A stretch of 29,583 bases of DNA from Minisyncoccia bacterium (GTDB lineage: Bacteria > Patescibacteriota > Minisyncoccia > Phycocordibacterales > UBA2163): assembly GCA_046757385.1 (NCBI GenBank), contig JBHHYD010000001.1, positions 1-29,583 of the forward strand, in the 5' to 3' direction. The position numbers and the translations under genes were made by a program. Positions 923-16,606 of the stretch are shown here, in pieces (position 1 is the stretch's first letter; the number at the start of each line of letters is the position of its first letter). The notes under the pieces were generated by a model, which was not told where the DNA came from, searched no databases, and worked only from the letters and a program-made list of their open reading frames with translations.

Positions 923-1144
923 ATGTACATAAAAGTTAAAGTTACTCCTGACGCTAAAAAAGAAAAATTGGAGCAAAAGCAGGAAGATTTATTTGAATTA
1001 AGTGTTAGAGAAAAAGCAAAGCAAAATATGGCAAATGAGCGTGTTAGGGAGCTTATAGCGCGGCATTTTGGTATAATAAAGACAGATGTGAGGATTATAA
1101 GCGGGCACAGAAGTCCGAGCAAAATTATAAGTATTGATAAGTAA
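923..1144 (+). CDS. DUF167/YggU family protein (73 aa)
   Basis: MYIKVKVTPDAKKE...SVREKAKQNMAN..V..LIA.HF...VRIISGHRSPSKII. True start ATG923, 1 nt after the ybhB stop; the track start at 722 overlaps ybhB. Confidence 0.85.
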   Translation: MYIKVKVTPDAKKEKLEQKQEDLFELSVREKAKQNMANERVRELIARHFGIIKTDVRIISGHRSPSKIISIDK

Positions 1145-11573: not shown

Positions 11574-12998
11574 ATGCGTGTTAATGAACCAACTGTAATA
11601 ATAATCCTCGGAGCCACTGGGGATTTAAGCAGAAGAAAGCTCCTGCCCGCTTTATTTCATTTGTATAATAGAAATCTGTTGCCGGAGAAATTTGCAGTTG
11701 TCGGATTCTCAAGAAAAGATCTCTCAAATGAAGATTTCAGAAAAATTGCAAAAGAAGCTGTAACAAATAAAGACAATTCACATAGTGAAGAGATATTAAA
11801 TAAATTTCTTGAAAATATTTCCTATACACAAGGAATTTTTGACGAAAAGGAAGGGTACAAAGCTTTAAACGAGTCGCTTTCAGATATAGACAATAAATGG
11901 GGAACATGCAGCAACAAACTTTTTCATCTTGCCGTGCCACCTTCTTTGTATGATGATATATTTGAACATTTGGCAAAATCAGGACTTACGATTCCATGCG
12001 GGGCAGACAAGGGTTGGACGAGAGTCTTGGTAGAAAAACCTTTTGGAAAGGACTTGAAGACTGCAAGAGAACTTGATGTAAAGCTCGGCAAGCTTTTTGA
12101 CGAAAGGCAAATTTTTAGAATTGATCACTATATGGCTAAAGAAGCGCTCCAGGATGTGCTCTCTTTTAGGTTTTCAAACTCGCTTTTTGAGCCTCTTTGG
12201 AATAAAGACCATATAGAAAAGATAGAAGTAAAATTTTTTGAGACACTTGGCATGGAAGGCAGGGGCACATTTTATGATGGAATAGGGGCGCTTCGTGATG
12301 TTGGACAAAACCATATGCTACAGATGCTTGCGTTTGCAACAATGGAGAATCCAGGCAAACTTGATGCAGATGCTATTAGGAAAAACAGAGCAGAGCTTTT
12401 AGGCGCGCTCGCTCCTATGAATAAAGTTCAAATAAAAGAAGATACTAAACGCGGACAATACGATGGATATAAAGATGAGTCCGAAGTGGAATCTAACTCA
12501 AAAACAGAGACATATTTCAAAATAAAAGCTTATATTGATAATGACCGATGGGAAGGTATGCCGTTTTATCTTGAGAGCGGAAAGAAGATGAATGAATCAA
12601 AAAAGGAAATATCCATTTACTTCAAAAAACCAACCACATGTATTTGTCCAACTGAAGAAGAGCATAAAGAACATCAGAATGTTTTGTCGTTCAGGATTGA
12701 CCCTGATGAAGGAATCTCAATAAGGTTTTGGGCAAAGAAATCCGGCTTTGATATGTCGCTTGAGCCAAAAGAACTTTCTTTTATGTATAATGACAAGAAA
12801 GAAAACGGAGAGAAAATTCCTGATGCATACGAAAGAGTTTTGTTTGATAGTATAAAGGGCGACCAGACATTGTTTGCAAGTACCGAAGAACTTGAAGCGT
12901 CATGGAAATTCATCACACCGATCTTTGAAGGGTGGAAAGATATAGAGCTAAAAGAGTACGAAGACGGAAGCGCCAGCGAGAACATTATTAATAGTTAA
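11574..12998 (+). CDS. zwf: Glucose-6-phosphate 1-dehydrogenase
   Basis: GATGDLSRRKL, EKPFGKDL, RIDHYMAKE, RDVGQNH, DAYERVL. Confidence 0.96.
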   Translation: MRVNEPTVIIILGATGDLSRRKLLPALFHLYNRNLLPEKFAVVGFSRKDLSNEDFRKIAKEAVTNKDNSHSEEILNKFLENISYTQGIFDEKEGYKALNESLSDIDNKWGTCSNKLFHLAVPPSLYDDIFEHLAKSGLTIPCGADKGWTRVLVEKPFGKDLKTARELDVKLGKLFDERQIFRIDHYMAKEALQDVLSFRFSNSLFEPLWNKDHIEKIEVKFFETLGMEGRGTFYDGIGALRDVGQNHMLQMLAFATMENPGKLDADAIRKNRAELLGALAPMNKVQIKEDTKRGQYDGYKDESEVESNSKTETYFKIKAYIDNDRWEGMPFYLESGKKMNESKKEISIYFKKPTTCICPTEEEHKEHQNVLSFRIDPDEGISIRFWAKKSGFDMSLEPKELSFMYNDKKENGEKIPDAYERVLFDSIKGDQTLFASTEELEASWKFITPIFEGWKDIELKEYEDGSASENIINS

Positions 12999-13008
12999 TT
13001 ACTTTATA

Positions 13009-13908
13009 ATGAAAATAGGATACATAGGACTTGGTAAAATGGGGCTCAATATGGTGGAGCGTTTACTTGAAAGAGATTATGAAATCGTTGCTTTTGCGCG
13101 TAAAGAAGAATCTAGACAGAGAGCTAAAGACCAAGGCGCAGAAACTGTATCTTCAGAGGAAGAGATGGTTAAAGCGCTCGAGCCCCCAAGACTTATATGG
13201 ATTATGGTTCCGTATAAAGCCGTAGATTCTGTAATAGAGGAATTAAAGAAATATCTGGAAGCAGGAGATACAATAATAGATGGTGGTAATTCTCCATATA
13301 AAGAATCAGTAAGAAGAGGAAAAGAATTGAAGGAATTAGGGATTAATTTTCTTGATGTCGGGGTCTCTGGTGGACCTGGGGGAGCTAGAGATGGTGCTGC
13401 GGCGATGATAGGTGGAGAAAAGAAAGTGTATGAAAAGTTCGAACAGCTTTTCAAAGACATATCGGTAGAGGGCGGTTACGGATACATGGGAGATCAGGGC
13501 GCAGGGCATTTTGTAAAAATGGTTCACAATGGCATTGAGTACGGCATGATGCAGGCGATAGGAGAAGGATTTGAGATAATGAAAAAGGCGCCGCTTAATC
13601 TTAATCTCACAAAAATCTCTGAAGTTTACAGAAACGGCACCGTCATATCATCAAGTTTGATTGACTGGATGCACAAGGCATTTGTAGAGGAGGGGGAAGA
13701 CTTAAAGGAGATTTCAGGTGAAGTGTCCCACAGTGGAGAGGGACTCTGGACGGTTGAAGCTGCGAAAGAGTTTGGAGTGCCTGCAAAAATTATAGAAGAG
13801 TCGCTCCAGTTTAGAATTGATTCAAAAGGTAATCCAAGCTATACAGGGCAAGTGGTCTCTGCACTCCGTAATCAGTTTGGTGGACACGAAGTGAAAAAGA
13901 AAAAATAA
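13009..13908 (+). CDS. gnd: 6-phosphogluconate dehydrogenase, decarboxylating (short form)
   Basis: GLGKMG, IDGGNS, DVGVSGG, GAGHFVKMVHNGIEYG, ALRNQFGGH. Confidence 0.95.
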   Translation: MKIGYIGLGKMGLNMVERLLERDYEIVAFARKEESRQRAKDQGAETVSSEEEMVKALEPPRLIWIMVPYKAVDSVIEELKKYLEAGDTIIDGGNSPYKESVRRGKELKELGINFLDVGVSGGPGGARDGAAAMIGGEKKVYEKFEQLFKDISVEGGYGYMGDQGAGHFVKMVHNGIEYGMMQAIGEGFEIMKKAPLNLNLTKISEVYRNGTVISSSLIDWMHKAFVEEGEDLKEISGEVSHSGEGLWTVEAAKEFGVPAKIIEESLQFRIDSKGNPSYTGQVVSALRNQFGGHEVKKKK

Positions 13909-13909
13909 T

Positions 13910-14776
13910 ATGCGTCCTGAGAACTTAAAAACAAAAATATTTTTAGATGGAGGAGATCCGAAGGAGACAAAGGAGATTATAAAGCTTCTCGGTTTTCTTG
14001 ACGGCCAGACGACAAACCCAACACTTGTCTCAAAAAATTCGAAAGCAAAAGAGCGTTTTGAAAAAGGAGACAAGTTTACCGAGAAGCAGATTTTTGATTT
14101 TTACAAAAGTATTGTCGGGGAGTTTTCAGCACTTATACCAGATGGCTCTGTATCTATTGAAGTGTATGCAGATAACAGCACAAGCGCTGATGAGATGTTT
14201 GAACAAGGGAAAGATATGTTCTCATGGATACCAAACGCTCATATTAAATATCCAATCACAAAAGCAGGGCTTGAGGCAGTAGAAAAATCAGTAAAAGAAG
14301 GAATGCGTGTAAATACAACACTCTGCTTTACTCAAGAGCAAGCGGCTGCGGTTTATTCAGCAACCAAAGGAGCGAAAAAAGGAGATGTCTTCGTATCTCC
14401 ATTTGTGGGACGACTTGATGATAGAGAAGAAAACGGCATGGGTCTTATTTCAAATATTATTAAGATGTATAAAGACAGCGATGGTCATAGTGAAGTGCTG
14501 ACTGCAAGTGTCAGGAATATTGACCACTTTCTTTACGCACTGAAACTTGGGAGTGACATAATCACAGCGCCATATGAGATTTTGAAACAGTGGGGAGAGG
14601 GAGGTATGAGAATACCAGATGAGACATGGATTTATCCTGCTGCTGGAGGCTTGAATACAATTGCCTATAAAGAACTTGACCTTAAAAAAGATTGGCGAGA
14701 ATTTGATATCAAACACGAATTAACAGATAAAGGCATTGAGCGATTTGCAAGTGACTGGAACAAATTAATAAAATGA
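13910..14776 (+). CDS. tal: Transaldolase family protein
   Basis: FLDGGD, GQTTNPTL, VSIEV, HIKYP (Schiff-base Lys), VNTTLCF, SPFVGRLDD, LTASVR. Confidence 0.9.
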   Translation: MRPENLKTKIFLDGGDPKETKEIIKLLGFLDGQTTNPTLVSKNSKAKERFEKGDKFTEKQIFDFYKSIVGEFSALIPDGSVSIEVYADNSTSADEMFEQGKDMFSWIPNAHIKYPITKAGLEAVEKSVKEGMRVNTTLCFTQEQAAAVYSATKGAKKGDVFVSPFVGRLDDREENGMGLISNIIKMYKDSDGHSEVLTASVRNIDHFLYALKLGSDIITAPYEILKQWGEGGMRIPDETWIYPAAGGLNTIAYKELDLKKDWREFDIKHELTDKGIERFASDWNKLIK

Positions 14777-15159
14777 GCAAAAAAAATTTTGATAAGTGGA
14801 ATATAAAGAAAAAGAATATAAACGGCAATATATCTAATTTGTTTGTCTCAGAAAGAGAAATATGGTGGTGTTCGCTTGGTGTGAATGTCGGAAGAGAGCA
14901 AGACGGGCATGGAAATGACTTTGAAAGACCAATTGTTATAATGAAGATACTAAGTCCGGATACACTTATTGCTGTTCCATTGAGTACAAAGAAGAGAATA
15001 GACAAATTTCAGGCAGTTGTAACGTTTGGAGAATTAGTAAATTATGGTTTGCTCGATCAACTGCGAGTAATTGATTCAAAAAGGTTAGTAAGAAAAATCG
15101 GAATGGTAGGAATTTCAGAATTTAAAGAAATAAAACGCAAGCTCATTGGTCTTATATAA
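14773..15159 (+). CDS. PemK/MazF-family endoribonuclease toxin, no adjacent protein antitoxin
   Basis: REIWWCSLGVNVGREQDG..FERPIVIMK...IAVPLST...LLDQLRVIDSKRLVRKIG; ATGA overlap with the tal stop. Confidence 0.85.
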   Translation: MSKKNFDKWNIKKKNINGNISNLFVSEREIWWCSLGVNVGREQDGHGNDFERPIVIMKILSPDTLIAVPLSTKKRIDKFQAVVTFGELVNYGLLDQLRVIDSKRLVRKIGMVGISEFKEIKRKLIGLI

Positions 15160-15188
15160 AACGAAAGGCCCGCCGGAGCGGACCTTTC
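15157..15188 (-). terminator. Minus-strand intrinsic terminator ending at the toxin stop codon
   Basis: GAAAGGTCCGC-TCCG-GCGGGCCTTTC-GTTTT on the minus strand; 11 bp with one G.U pair (a C/A mismatch on the plus strand). Confidence 0.7.
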
Positions 15189-15210
15189 TCGGAGGCCGAA
15201 GCCACTGTGT
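15157..15210 (-). ncRNA. Candidate ~54-nt RNA convergent on the toxin gene
   Basis: Between the promoter at 15217-15244 and the terminator at 15157-15188; contains a GGC-UUCG-GCC hairpin; no ORF. TSS inferred. Confidence 0.6.
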
Positions 15211-15216
15211 AACCAT

Positions 15217-15244
15217 AGTATAGCAATGCTAGATAATATGTCAA
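15217..15244 (-). promoter_or_regulatory. Near-consensus antisense sigma70 promoter
   Basis: TTGACA (15244-15239)-16 nt ending TGC-TATACT (15222-15217). Confidence 0.75.
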
Positions 15245-15265
15245 CAGCAATTGTGAATAATAAAT

Positions 15266-16606
15266 ATGAACGTAAAAGAATTAGAAAAAATTAAAAATAA
15301 GGTTTTTGAGGATGCTAAAAGTATTTTGGAAAATAATAGGGTAGATTTAAATGGCGACAGCTACACAAAGCCTGCGCCGAAACTCTATCCATTCCAGTGG
15401 AATTGGGATTCGGGGTTTATGGCTTATGGCTATTCTCATTACGATACTGGGAAGGCAATAGCGGAGCTTCGGTCACTTTTCAAGGGCCAGTGGTCAAGTG
15501 GTTTTCTTCCGCATATTATTTTTCATAAAAAAGCGGAAGGTTATTTCCCCAATTATGATTTTTGGAATACTGCAGAGATTAGCAAATACGCTCCAAAAGA
15601 TCTGCATACATCAGGCATTACACAACCGCCACTTCACGCTGTAGTTGTCTGGCATATATATGAGATTATAAATAAAACTGATCAGGAGAAAGCGAAAAAC
15701 TTTCTCAAAGAATTTTTTCCAAAGCTCCTTAAACTTCATGAATATTTTTACACAAAGCGCGACCCTGAAGGCAGCGGGATGATCACCATTTATCATCCAT
15801 GGGAGTCAGGATTTGATAATTCTCCACGTTGGGATGCGCCTCTTAATAATGTAATTGTCGGAGATATTCCAAAATATGAAAGATTTGATACAAAATTTGT
15901 GAGTCCAAAATTCAGACCTACTGATGCGGAGTATGATAAGTATGTATATCTTGCAAACGAGCTAAAGAAAAAAAATTATAATGATGCTTTAATATACAAA
16001 GATCATCCGTTTAAAGTGAAAGACAAAGTATTGTCATCTATCTTATGTCTTGCAAACAGAAAGCTTGAACTTATGGCGGAAGTTTTAAGTGAAGACAGCA
16101 GTAACATAAAAGAATGGACAAAGAGATTTGAGAAAAGTTTAATGGAAATTATGTGGTGTGAAGAACATAAGCTTTTTTATGATTTTGACGTTGTCGCAAA
16201 CAAGCAGATAAGAGTGAGGACAGTTGGGTCTCTTATTCCTATAATGACAGGGCTTCTCTCAAAAGAGCAGATAGAAGAGATGACTGTACATTTAGATAAA
16301 GTAAACTTTTGCGGTAATAAATCATGCAAGCTTGGTCTCTTGCCTTCAGCTGGTTTTCATGAACATGAATTTAATCACGAACAGTATTGGCGCGGACCGA
16401 TCTGGATCAATATCAACTGGTTTTTATACAAAGGTTTTCTTATAAACGATATGAAAGATCGAGCTGAAAGCATGAAGATTCACATCTTACGCCTCATACA
16501 AGAAAGCGGTTTCTGGGAGTATTATTCACCAATTGACGGAAAAGGCTTAGGGTCAGAGAACTTCTCATGGACTGCCGCCCTTGCTATAGATTTATTATAT
16601 GAATAA
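15266..16606 (+). CDS. GH63/MGH1-like (alpha/alpha)6 glycoside hydrolase
   Basis: YPFQWNWDSGF, SGITQPP, HPWESGFDNSPRWD, YWRGPIWININW, FSWTAAL. Confidence 0.85.
   Translation: MNVKELEKIKNKVFEDAKSILENNRVDLNGDSYTKPAPKLYPFQWNWDSGFMAYGYSHYDTGKAIAELRSLFKGQWSSGFLPHIIFHKKAEGYFPNYDFWNTAEISKYAPKDLHTSGITQPPLHAVVVWHIYEIINKTDQEKAKNFLKEFFPKLLKLHEYFYTKRDPEGSGMITIYHPWESGFDNSPRWDAPLNNVIVGDIPKYERFDTKFVSPKFRPTDAEYDKYVYLANELKKKNYNDALIYKDHPFKVKDKVLSSILCLANRKLELMAEVLSEDSSNIKEWTKRFEKSLMEIMWCEEHKLFYDFDVVANKQIRVRTVGSLIPIMTGLLSKEQIEEMTVHLDKVNFCGNKSCKLGLLPSAGFHEHEFNHEQYWRGPIWININWFLYKGFLINDMKDRAESMKIHILRLIQESGFWEYYSPIDGKGLGSENFSWTAALAIDLLYE

Follow-up and report, generated by a model that had tools for sequence, protein, structure and literature searches.

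A convergent small RNA accompanies a subfamily of MazF-like endoribonucleases in Patescibacteria and is its probable antitoxin

In a Minisyncoccia bacterium (assembly GCA_046757385.1), a 29,583 nt-long stretch of DNA (contig JBHHYD010000001.1, positions 1-29,583 of the forward strand; hereafter the window) encodes an endoribonuclease of the MazF/PemK family that is faced, on the opposite strand, by a predicted small RNA (sRNA) gene with its own promoter and an intrinsic terminator running into the toxin stop codon. The same arrangement recurs among homologs of this toxin, and comparative analysis indicates the RNA to be very probably a dedicated, co-inherited partner of the toxin and, in our judgment, probably also its antitoxin. 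The original prediction, made from the letters of the window alone, had proposed a MazF-fold toxin to be controlled by a single convergent RNA, a proposal that gains support from the conservation of the pair, the lack of a protein partner in 104 loci and the existence of a mapped sRNA at a related locus of the Campylobacter jejuni plasmid pVir.

A search of 61 related genomes for toxin homologs returned 28 matching stretches in 17 genomes (30-47% identity), which correspond to 26 gene copies, 23 of them full-length and stop-free and three broken or partial. Inspection of the 100 nt following the toxin stop revealed, every time, an opposite-strand module composed of a -35 element (TTGAC), a -10 element (TAnnnT), a short A/U-rich leader, a hairpin of 3-4 bp and a second, GC-rich hairpin. 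From 69 copies we built a covariance model, R1, that comprises promoter, leader and the first hairpin (hairpin 1); a single model for the whole RNA was dropped, as MAFFT failed to align the second hairpin (hairpin 2) across variants, and hairpin 2 was hence treated per variant. R1 includes the promoter, and its weak matches elsewhere are merely promoters. Across the 61 genomes, which are non-independent samples owing to their relatedness, an R1 match was present downstream and on the opposite strand of all 23 full-length stop-free toxins and of two of the three broken copies. The sole toxin devoid of an R1 match (in G054) carries two stops and has a degenerate promoter, too.

Scanning one genome per GTDB species yielded 537 confirmed toxin homologs, and 80 loci of these were examined, all of Patescibacteria type or unclassified save for one metagenome-assembled genome labeled Gammaproteobacteria. 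Here, R1 matched at 86 of 88 toxin genes, 27-84 nt past the end of the toxin match; the two misses were L105, where a diverged copy was apparent by eye, and L106. Within a phylum-wide sample of 150 genomes, 16 contained the toxin (up to five copies each). The fast filters of R1 missed distant classes in this sample; with filters off, ten of 14 toxin 3′ ends gave a match at the expected place and strand—seven of these ten being weak (E 0.026-0.46)—and inspection by eye uncovered the module in most of them, with hairpin 1 sequences such as GGG/CCC, GAG/CUC and CGAC/GUCG. The question raised by the original prediction, i.e. whether promoter, hairpin and terminator are conserved together downstream of toxin homologs, thus received a clearly positive answer.

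Host genomes are small (~0.5-1.5 Mb) and harbor up to five copies, as in G035 and G142, with a separate RNA for each copy. The genome of the window contains exactly two toxins of this subfamily (on C1 and C26) and two RNA modules, with no other match below E 0.3. Paralogs within one genome bear different RNA variants (L003, L021 and L027 in G028; L006, L019, L026 and L029 in G035). Toxin-RNA modules also occur as tandem pairs, 350-1000 nt apart (L005/L020 in G026:C5, L045, L058, L061, L080, L098, L107), in which each toxin has its own RNA and the two RNAs are often unlike. Taken together, conservation to this extent excludes a chance pairing of toxin and RNA.

In the window, the promoter TTGACA-16-TATACT with TG extension lies where the original prediction had placed it, matches the consensus at 11 of 12 positions and is the top promoter-like site within 3.3 kb. 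As a class, promoter-like sites are not enriched in the 3.3 kb scanned (12 found versus 8.9 expected), and the case for the sRNA promoter therefore rests on its conservation and not on the scan. The predicted transcript reads, in order, a leader of 6-7 nt (ACACAGU), the hairpin GGC-UUCG-GCC, the linker UCCGA, the terminator stem and the tail GUUUUAUAUA; both the length and the UUCG hairpin are as initially described. The terminator stem (11 bp, seven of them GC) contains one U.G pair on the minus strand that turns into a C.A mismatch on the plus strand and hence pairs better on the former, and the U run of its tail covers the toxin TAA at 15157-15159, again in line with the initial description. 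On the plus strand of the window, hairpin 2 is not followed by a U tract, and the toxin mRNA therefore probably extends across the entire RNA gene. Folding a 58-nt RNA gave -25.6 kcal/mol (z = -3.4 relative to shuffled sequences), and R1 scored the window RNA at 53.7 bits (E 5.6e-9 in the genome).

Membership of a known RNA family was rejected, with all Rfam matches falling below the gathering score: at a permissive E-value, the best match in the window was a terminator-driven one to istR (25.7 bits versus 45), and seven related loci returned sub-threshold chance matches only (lactis-plasmid, 31.6 bits versus 70). Many copies have an AUG or GUG ahead of hairpin 1 that opens a frame of 17-20 codons, to which we ascribe no coding role because ~24% of the copies lack a start codon at this position (xGG or xCG) and compensatory changes in the stem swap Ala for Pro or Gly. 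Coordinates of all features are compiled in Table 1.

Table 1 Features of the toxin-sRNA locus (positions of the window)
Feature	Position	Strand	Basis or remark
tal (transaldolase)	13910-14776	+	Pfam TAL_FSA (E 5.2e-48) and open reading frame list; upstream context
MazF/PemK-family endoribonuclease gene, 128 aa, distinct subfamily	14773-15159	+	Pfam PF02452 above cut-off, Foldseek, alignment
N-terminal extension, ~27 residues, subfamily-specific	14773-14853	+	alignment A3; motif KxFDxWNxxKK
Predicted sRNA promoter: -35 TTGACA (15244-15239), 16-nt spacer, TG (15225-15224), -10 TATACT (15222-15217)	15217-15244	-	promoter scan and alignment
Predicted sRNA, ~54 nt; +1 A at 15210, 3′ end in U run at ~15156-15160	15156-15210	-	alignment, fold, covariance model R1
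Hairpin 1, GGC-UUCG-GCC	15194-15203	-	7 nt from predicted 5′ end; paired across copies
Linker UCCGA, single-stranded	15189-15193	-	alignment A4
Hairpin 2, intrinsic terminator (stem 15188-15163) with tail GUUUUAUAUA	15153-15188	-	terminator scan, covariation
DnaA-box-like nonamer TTATTCACA	15252-15260	-	7 nt upstream of -35; minority feature

Alignment of 95 copies revealed the first T, second T and G of the -35 element to be kept in 95, 93 and 94 copies, respectively, and the T, A and final T of the -10 element in all 95, while the G of the TG extension occurs in 61; an A at the predicted +1 position, 7 nt past the -10 element, is found in 89 of 94. With the most important sigma-70 positions retained, this is a real promoter, which points away from the downstream gene and fires toward the toxin. 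Across 96 copies, 97.8% of the hairpin 1 cells are paired and 12 GC-to-CG swaps occur; distant forms of this hairpin include GCC-GAAA-GGC. Hairpin loops on the RNA strand read UUCG (63), GCAA (31), GAAA (8) or another GNRA sequence. Such stable loops are confined to this strand, as the toxin strand would read CGAA or UUGC, and the RNA strand folds better than the toxin strand in 61 of 75 copies. A 319-nt contig from a marine metagenome (run X4) contains the 50-nt RNA core (window positions 15162-15211) with zero mismatches, between flanks that are unlike the window on both sides; the letters preceding the core fit the 3′ end of a different open reading frame (ORF). An identical core within different flanks argues that the RNA core is more conserved than its surroundings.

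Beyond hairpin 1, the RNA exists in three variants. In variant A, to which the window belongs, UCCGA and the first base of hairpin 2 provide an invariant CCGAG (C22, G23, A24 and G25 are invariant in alignment A4 of 24 copies), and hairpin 2, which carries compensatory changes at seven of nine pairs, is the terminator. Variant C, from distant classes, is similar in layout and has an NCGA linker. Most copies belong to variant B, in which a short hairpin 2 precedes a purine-rich stretch; according to folding, this stretch supplies the A tract for a long bidirectional terminator whose 3′ arm is antisense to the last ~8 toxin codons. The RNA, estimated at ~90-100 nt, then shares its terminator with the toxin mRNA. 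The possibility that the toxin cleaves variant B in its A-rich tail was considered and rejected, given that the A tract pairs with the U-rich 3′ arm located in the last codons of the toxin.

Neither side of the window toxin harbors a plausible antitoxin ORF as judged from the ORF list and Pfam—tal lies upstream, overlapping the toxin ATG with its TGA stop (ATGA), and a glycoside hydrolase gene downstream—which agrees with the original reading of a toxin coupled to tal and lacking an adjoining antitoxin ORF. Extending the search to 104 non-redundant Patescibacteria loci, from 500 nt upstream to 600 nt beyond the RNA, disclosed no conserved flanking protein antitoxin and no ORF family present in more than eight loci. 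The same 0.5-Mb genome additionally encodes two canonical PemK/MazF genes (G000:C24:6755-7281 and G000:C12:8049-8634), each with an overlapping small ORF upstream (68 and 83 aa, without Pfam match), i.e. the normal type II layout.

Five clear R1 matches represent RNA copies without an adjoining toxin match. Two of these orphan RNA genes, L114 (G026:C7) and L116 (G035:C5), have intact promoter, hairpins and bidirectional terminator and adjoin stretches that we interpret as the remaining last codons of a toxin gene, and it appears that the toxin was lost and the RNA kept. L115 is degenerate, and L117 has no toxin ORF nearby. The fifth locus, L118 (G028:C2:250-1750), contains a complete variant-A RNA (936-998, minus strand) convergent to an ORF with an NYN domain (PF01936; 256-819, plus strand) and no MazF gene, an adjacency that may be due to chance following toxin loss or may reveal a second kind of partner. 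RNAs without toxin thus exist, yet there is no full-length stop-free toxin without RNA, an asymmetry to be expected if the RNA is the antidote.

The window toxin matched the Pfam family PemK_toxin (PF02452; 36.6 bits, cut-off 23.1, E 5.7e-9), the sole Pfam family reported, and scored 24 bits against the NCBIfam MazF equivalog, so far below the cut-off of 120 that it is not an ortholog of E. coli MazF. Its AlphaFold2 (AF2) model had a predicted local distance difference test (pLDDT) score of 72. Because the best 50 Foldseek matches to this model were all MazF structures (template modeling score 0.58-0.65 by query and 0.65-0.76 by target), the protein, as modeled, is MazF proper and not ToxN/AbiQ. 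The toxin family alignment (A3) contains 22 invariant positions, including R52-P53, and the nearly invariant L70 precedes either S or T (PL-S/T at 69-71). When the toxin profile was aligned to B. subtilis MazF (4mdx), R52 and the S/T position fell onto R25 and T48, which we take to be the catalytic Arg and Thr/Ser of MazF, equivalent to R29 and T52 in E. coli. As the alignment retains both catalytic positions (Arg and Ser/Thr), the toxin looks active. At some loci (L054, L063, L067, L075, L079, L085, L106, L110, L112), the toxin frame has no stop at the usual place and continues through the RNA gene, giving rise to ORFs of 143-184 aa; the RNA module is at its normal distance in these read-on loci wherever it was detected.

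What sets the subfamily apart is its N-terminal extension, in which K4, F6, D7, W9, N10 and K13 are invariant. Matches of the toxin profile to solved MazF structures begin at profile position 25 or later, and the extension is absent from these structures and from both canonical PemK genes of the same genome. For residues 6-18, AF2 predicts a helix with low confidence.

Outside Patescibacteria, tblastn against plasmids retrieved the same toxin subfamily, including the N-terminal motif, from Nitratiruptor and C. jejuni. The relative on pVir of C. jejuni 81-176, CJJ81176_pVir0047 (30634-31038), is the only match to the query toxin on this plasmid and shares 31% identity with the window toxin over 104 residues (BLASTP, E 6e-16), the match starting at the FDxWN motif. 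No protein antitoxin is annotated beside pVir0047, and a convergent promoter (TTGATT-17-TGnTATAAT) is predicted downstream of it. In the dRNA-seq-based tables of Dugar et al. 2013 (PMC3656092, Tables S5 and S12), an sRNA transcription start site (TSS) at 31119 on the minus strand has a step height of 16164, compared with 28 for the toxin TSS (30608), and is the largest in that stretch of the table; the corresponding sRNA, CJpv3, is listed between pVir0047 and pVir0048 with a length of 77 nt (31119-31043) and the remark 'Detected on Northern blot'. The CJpv3 TSS maps 81 nt past the toxin stop and its 3′ end 5 nt from that stop, without any ORF overlap, and the RNA consists of a 6-nt leader and three hairpins devoid of UUCG or GNRA loops. 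RNA homology between CJpv3 and the Patescibacteria RNAs was not detected: the best R1 match in the pVir stretch had 13.8 bits and covered the promoter only, and R1 scored 7.8 bits at the Nitratiruptor locus.

The 99 nt underlying CJpv3 (L123:1534-1632, C. jejuni pCj2/pVir) recur, ~93% identical, on Campylobacter plasmids between 3.8 and 5.2 kb in size (NC_004997.1, NZ_CP084081.1, NZ_CP048773.1, NZ_OY754861.1), on which the toxin-gene part of the query had no match; these copies may be orphan antidotes that protect against addiction to pVir. In two further publications (PMC10470494, PMC7826846), which refer to Shen et al. 2016, cjrA figures as an antisense RNA antitoxin that forms a 'type I' system together with CjpT, a protein toxin encoded on pVir of 81-176, and one of them (PMC7826846) notes 'cjrA-RNA' without the toxin in four isolates. 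CJpv3/pVir0047 is probably identical to cjrA/cjpT, because pVir contains a single match to the toxin, 'cjrA-RNA' occurs in toxin-free isolates and the CJpv3 region is found alone on small plasmids. Shen et al. 2016 (Mol Microbiol 101:909, PubMed 27291507) reportedly described cjrA/cjpT as an RNA-antitoxin/protein-toxin pair. Two Campylobacterota relatives are followed, on the same strand and just downstream of the toxin, by a small ORF: one of 62 aa without Pfam match on the Nitratiruptor plasmid (L121:1904-2092), and, on a C. coli plasmid (L122:1926-2060), one of 44 aa that matches HTH_3 only weakly, short of the Pfam cut-off. In these lineages, the ORFs may encode protein antitoxins, with the gene order reversed.

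We infer an antidote function for the RNA because there is no protein partner in the loci searched, the catalytic site is intact, orphan copies are distributed asymmetrically and Campylobacter offers a precedent; toxicity of the protein, its neutralization by the RNA and the mode of binding are likewise inferences. As for mechanism, we tentatively favor, with somewhat less than even confidence, a two-gene toxin-antidote module in which the RNA acts mainly by binding the toxin directly. The ~54-nt RNA, transcribed abundantly from its strong convergent promoter, would carry two highly stable tetraloop hairpins that frame its short single-stranded parts, namely the 6-nt 5′ leader and the linker UCCGA. 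Leader and linker would be offered to the RNA-binding groove of the toxin dimer, keeping the RNase inactive by direct sequestration, and the N-terminal extension might supply further RNA contacts. This logic would resemble that of type III systems while lying outside their families, and complementarity to the 3′ end of the toxin mRNA could add a second, antisense layer.

The leading alternative, only somewhat less likely, is that the RNA is an antitoxin of the type I kind, acting as a cis-antisense RNA that pairs with the toxin mRNA 3′ end—through the entire 3′ untranslated region (UTR) in variants A and C, and through the bidirectional terminator common to both transcripts in variant B—to elicit RNase III cleavage and decay or to block translation. 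Without exception, the RNA gene converges on the toxin gene and adjoins or overlaps its 3′ end; variant B shares its terminator, including the last ~8 codons, with an estimated 45-55 nt of perfect RNA-mRNA complementarity; the window mRNA probably continues across the RNA gene; and the pVir system is cited as type I with an antisense sRNA. However, leader, hairpin 1, linker and hairpin 2, the best-conserved part of the RNA, lie outside the overlap in variant B, where the third hairpin terminates and alone overlaps the toxin mRNA, and would have no role in such a model. There is also no complementarity to the toxin 5′ region or ribosome-binding site: across 30 pairs, duplexes between the RNA 5′ part and the toxin 5′ UTR and start region averaged -16.6 kcal/mol for cognate, -16.7 for non-cognate and -17.1 for shuffled combinations, and par-type pairing was rejected as cognate energies were no better than the controls. 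The 3′ end of CJpv3, moreover, falls 5 nt outside the toxin ORF, and the window protein is a soluble RNase of 128 aa rather than a small membrane peptide. We lean slightly toward direct binding over the antisense route because the core is kept in variant B, because pairing with the toxin mRNA 5′ region is lacking, because the N-terminal extension, basic and aromatic, is unique to the subfamily and because paralogs of the same genome carry different RNA variants.

Several observations weigh against direct binding. The constant convergent, abutting position is a hallmark of 3′-overlapping type I systems, and the probable Campylobacter counterpart is described as type I and antisense in the papers citing it (PMC10470494, PMC7826846). 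Different stable tetraloops (UUCG, GAAA) cap the hairpins and stem pairs are flipped, a pattern that fits selection for stability over sequence-specific contact, and hairpin 1 could just guard the 5′ end. Only about half of the copies begin with ACA, which also weakens the early suggestion that ACA motifs in the leader serve as decoy or substrate. The AF2 model is moderate, and with a pLDDT below 50 it is unreliable for the N-terminal extension. Co-inheritance by itself would hold two adjacent genes together. Finally, no RNA sequencing runs covering the sRNA stretch were listed, and in one metatranscriptome the window is represented only by tal and hydrolase fragments (contigs), a point we count here, yet one that is uninformative for a 54-nt RNA.

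It is improbable that the RNA is a dedicated partner other than an antidote, be it a positive or fine-tuning regulator (compare aMEF for mazEF), a substrate or sensor, or a specificity cofactor. Co-occurrence proves partnership and not the direction of the effect, one RNA copy adjoins an NYN-domain gene instead of a MazF gene, and one study (PMC8749433) records an antisense RNA that stimulates mazEF expression as a precedent. Speaking against such roles, RNAs persist without toxin and no full-length stop-free toxin lacks an RNA, catalytic residues are in place with no other candidate antidote in sight, and in Campylobacter the TSS signal of the sRNA far exceeds that of the toxin.

We consider it very unlikely that neutralization falls to a protein from another site in the genome, or that the toxin has been domesticated into a non-toxic RNase, with the RNA a passenger of the same mobile cassette. 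The small same-strand ORFs of the Campylobacterota plasmids would suit this explanation, as would the translational coupling of the window toxin to a housekeeping-type gene, tal. Set against it are the lack of a conserved neighboring ORF in Patescibacteria, the presence of up to five copies with an RNA each in genomes of ~0.5-1.5 Mb and the invariant catalytic positions, and a mere passenger would neither accompany the toxin at 86 of 88 loci from different classes nor keep its promoter positions invariant. Least likely of all, the element could act as DNA or through transcription, its strong promoter and immediate terminator insulating or terminating the toxin gene around a functionless product: hairpin 2 or 3 does double as terminator for one or both genes and variant-A RNA is little more than two hairpins, but hairpin 1 and the linker are conserved in sequence and structure with compensatory changes, stable loops are restricted to the RNA strand, orphan RNAs persist with no toxin gene to insulate, and the CJpv3 region is kept on small plasmids without a match to the toxin-gene query.

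Among the surroundings of the module, a gene for an MGH1-like glycoside hydrolase (446 aa) begins at 15266, 106 nt 3′ of the toxin gene. In other loci the gene upstream of the toxin varies, as does the downstream one, which leaves tal outside the module. Together with zwf, gnd and the gene for the MGH1-like hydrolase, tal constitutes one block (window 11574-16606). In an empty-site comparison meant to define the module ends, tal was not found, with the query used, in five genomes of the same genus, so the block may itself be accessory in the genus. Upstream of the sRNA promoter, TTATCCACA with at most one mismatch was found in 14 of 75 loci, mostly 6-9 nt ahead of the -35 element and in the same orientation, against a background of 1.6% per 45-nt window; besides the window, the loci concerned include L034, L061, L063, L064, L065, L080, L082 and L113. 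This DnaA-box-like nonamer may serve to regulate the RNA promoter.

Textbooks present MazF as the model type II toxin, regulated through contacts between proteins. Our proposal—a tentative one, which we regard as possible but less than an even bet—is that a MazF subfamily spread across the phylum Patescibacteria, and reaching Campylobacterota plasmids, is neutralized by direct binding of a ~55-nt two-hairpin RNA, with the N-terminal extension as the RNA-recognition element. If true, this would define a toxin-antitoxin class that joins type II toxins with type III logic and is distinct from ToxIN-like repeat arrays. Hundreds of seemingly 'orphan' MazF genes in the tiny genomes of uncultured Patescibacteria (up to five each) are very probably not orphans but have dedicated RNA partners, which are invisible to annotation and to toxin-antitoxin prediction pipelines. 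Should the RNA be the antidote, it would explain how these genomes tolerate solitary MazF genes, extend RNA antitoxins to the MazF family and give structural biology and biotechnology a very small natural RNA that binds or inhibits a MazF RNase. The connection with C. jejuni pVir, for which a mapped sRNA and an RNA antitoxin have been reported, offers a culturable model for a system otherwise confined to uncultured bacteria, and protein binding versus antisense pairing is directly testable in E. coli.

Compared with known systems, the window toxin shares family, fold and catalytic positions with the type II toxins of MazEF and PemIK (Kis-Kid), from which it differs by its N-terminal extension, a 5-residue insertion ahead of the catalytic Arg and the lack of a MazE/PemI-type gene. 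ToxN, the toxin of type III systems, has a Kid/MazF-like fold, and the comparison with ToxN drawn in the original prediction holds as an analogy of folds, whereas the protein itself belongs, by its modeled structure, to MazF proper. Type III systems (ToxIN, CptIN, TenpIN; Blower et al. 2012, PMC3401426; reviewed in PMC5086642) resemble the present one in combining an endoribonuclease toxin with a small structured RNA as presumed antidote. Their antitoxin, in contrast, consists of tandem repeats that lie upstream on the same strand and are processed by the toxin, while the window RNA is single-copy, downstream, on the opposite strand and equipped with its own promoter and terminator. A type III-style repeat antitoxin was rejected for the window, as there is no repeat array near the toxin gene (between 13800 and 15400, the only tandem repeat is a trivial 7-nt duplicate inside the hydrolase gene).

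Convergent type I systems with overlapping 3′ ends include RNA I-RNA II of par/fst on pAD1, which share a bidirectional terminator, and txpA/RatA and bsrG/SR4 of B. subtilis. Like these, the present system has a convergent gene for a presumed antidote RNA with a strong promoter of its own and overlapping 3′ ends, as well as a shared bidirectional terminator in variant B. It differs in that the toxin is not a hydrophobic peptide of less than 60 aa, in that par-type 5′ complementarity is missing and in that the conserved RNA core is located outside the overlap. The closest relative is CJpv3/pVir0047. Unlike the window RNA, CJpv3 is 77 nt long with three hairpins, has no detectable RNA homology to it and resides on a Campylobacterota plasmid instead of a Patescibacteria chromosome. 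Both systems, however, pair a toxin of the MazF subfamily with N-terminal FDxWNxxKK with a convergent sRNA gene that has its own sigma-70-type promoter, abuts the toxin stop with its 3′ end and begins with a 6-nt leader followed by hairpins. The finding therefore has a precedent in CJpv3/pVir0047, and probably in cjrA/cjpT, which makes the RNA-controlled MazF put forward in the original prediction less unprecedented than had been assumed.

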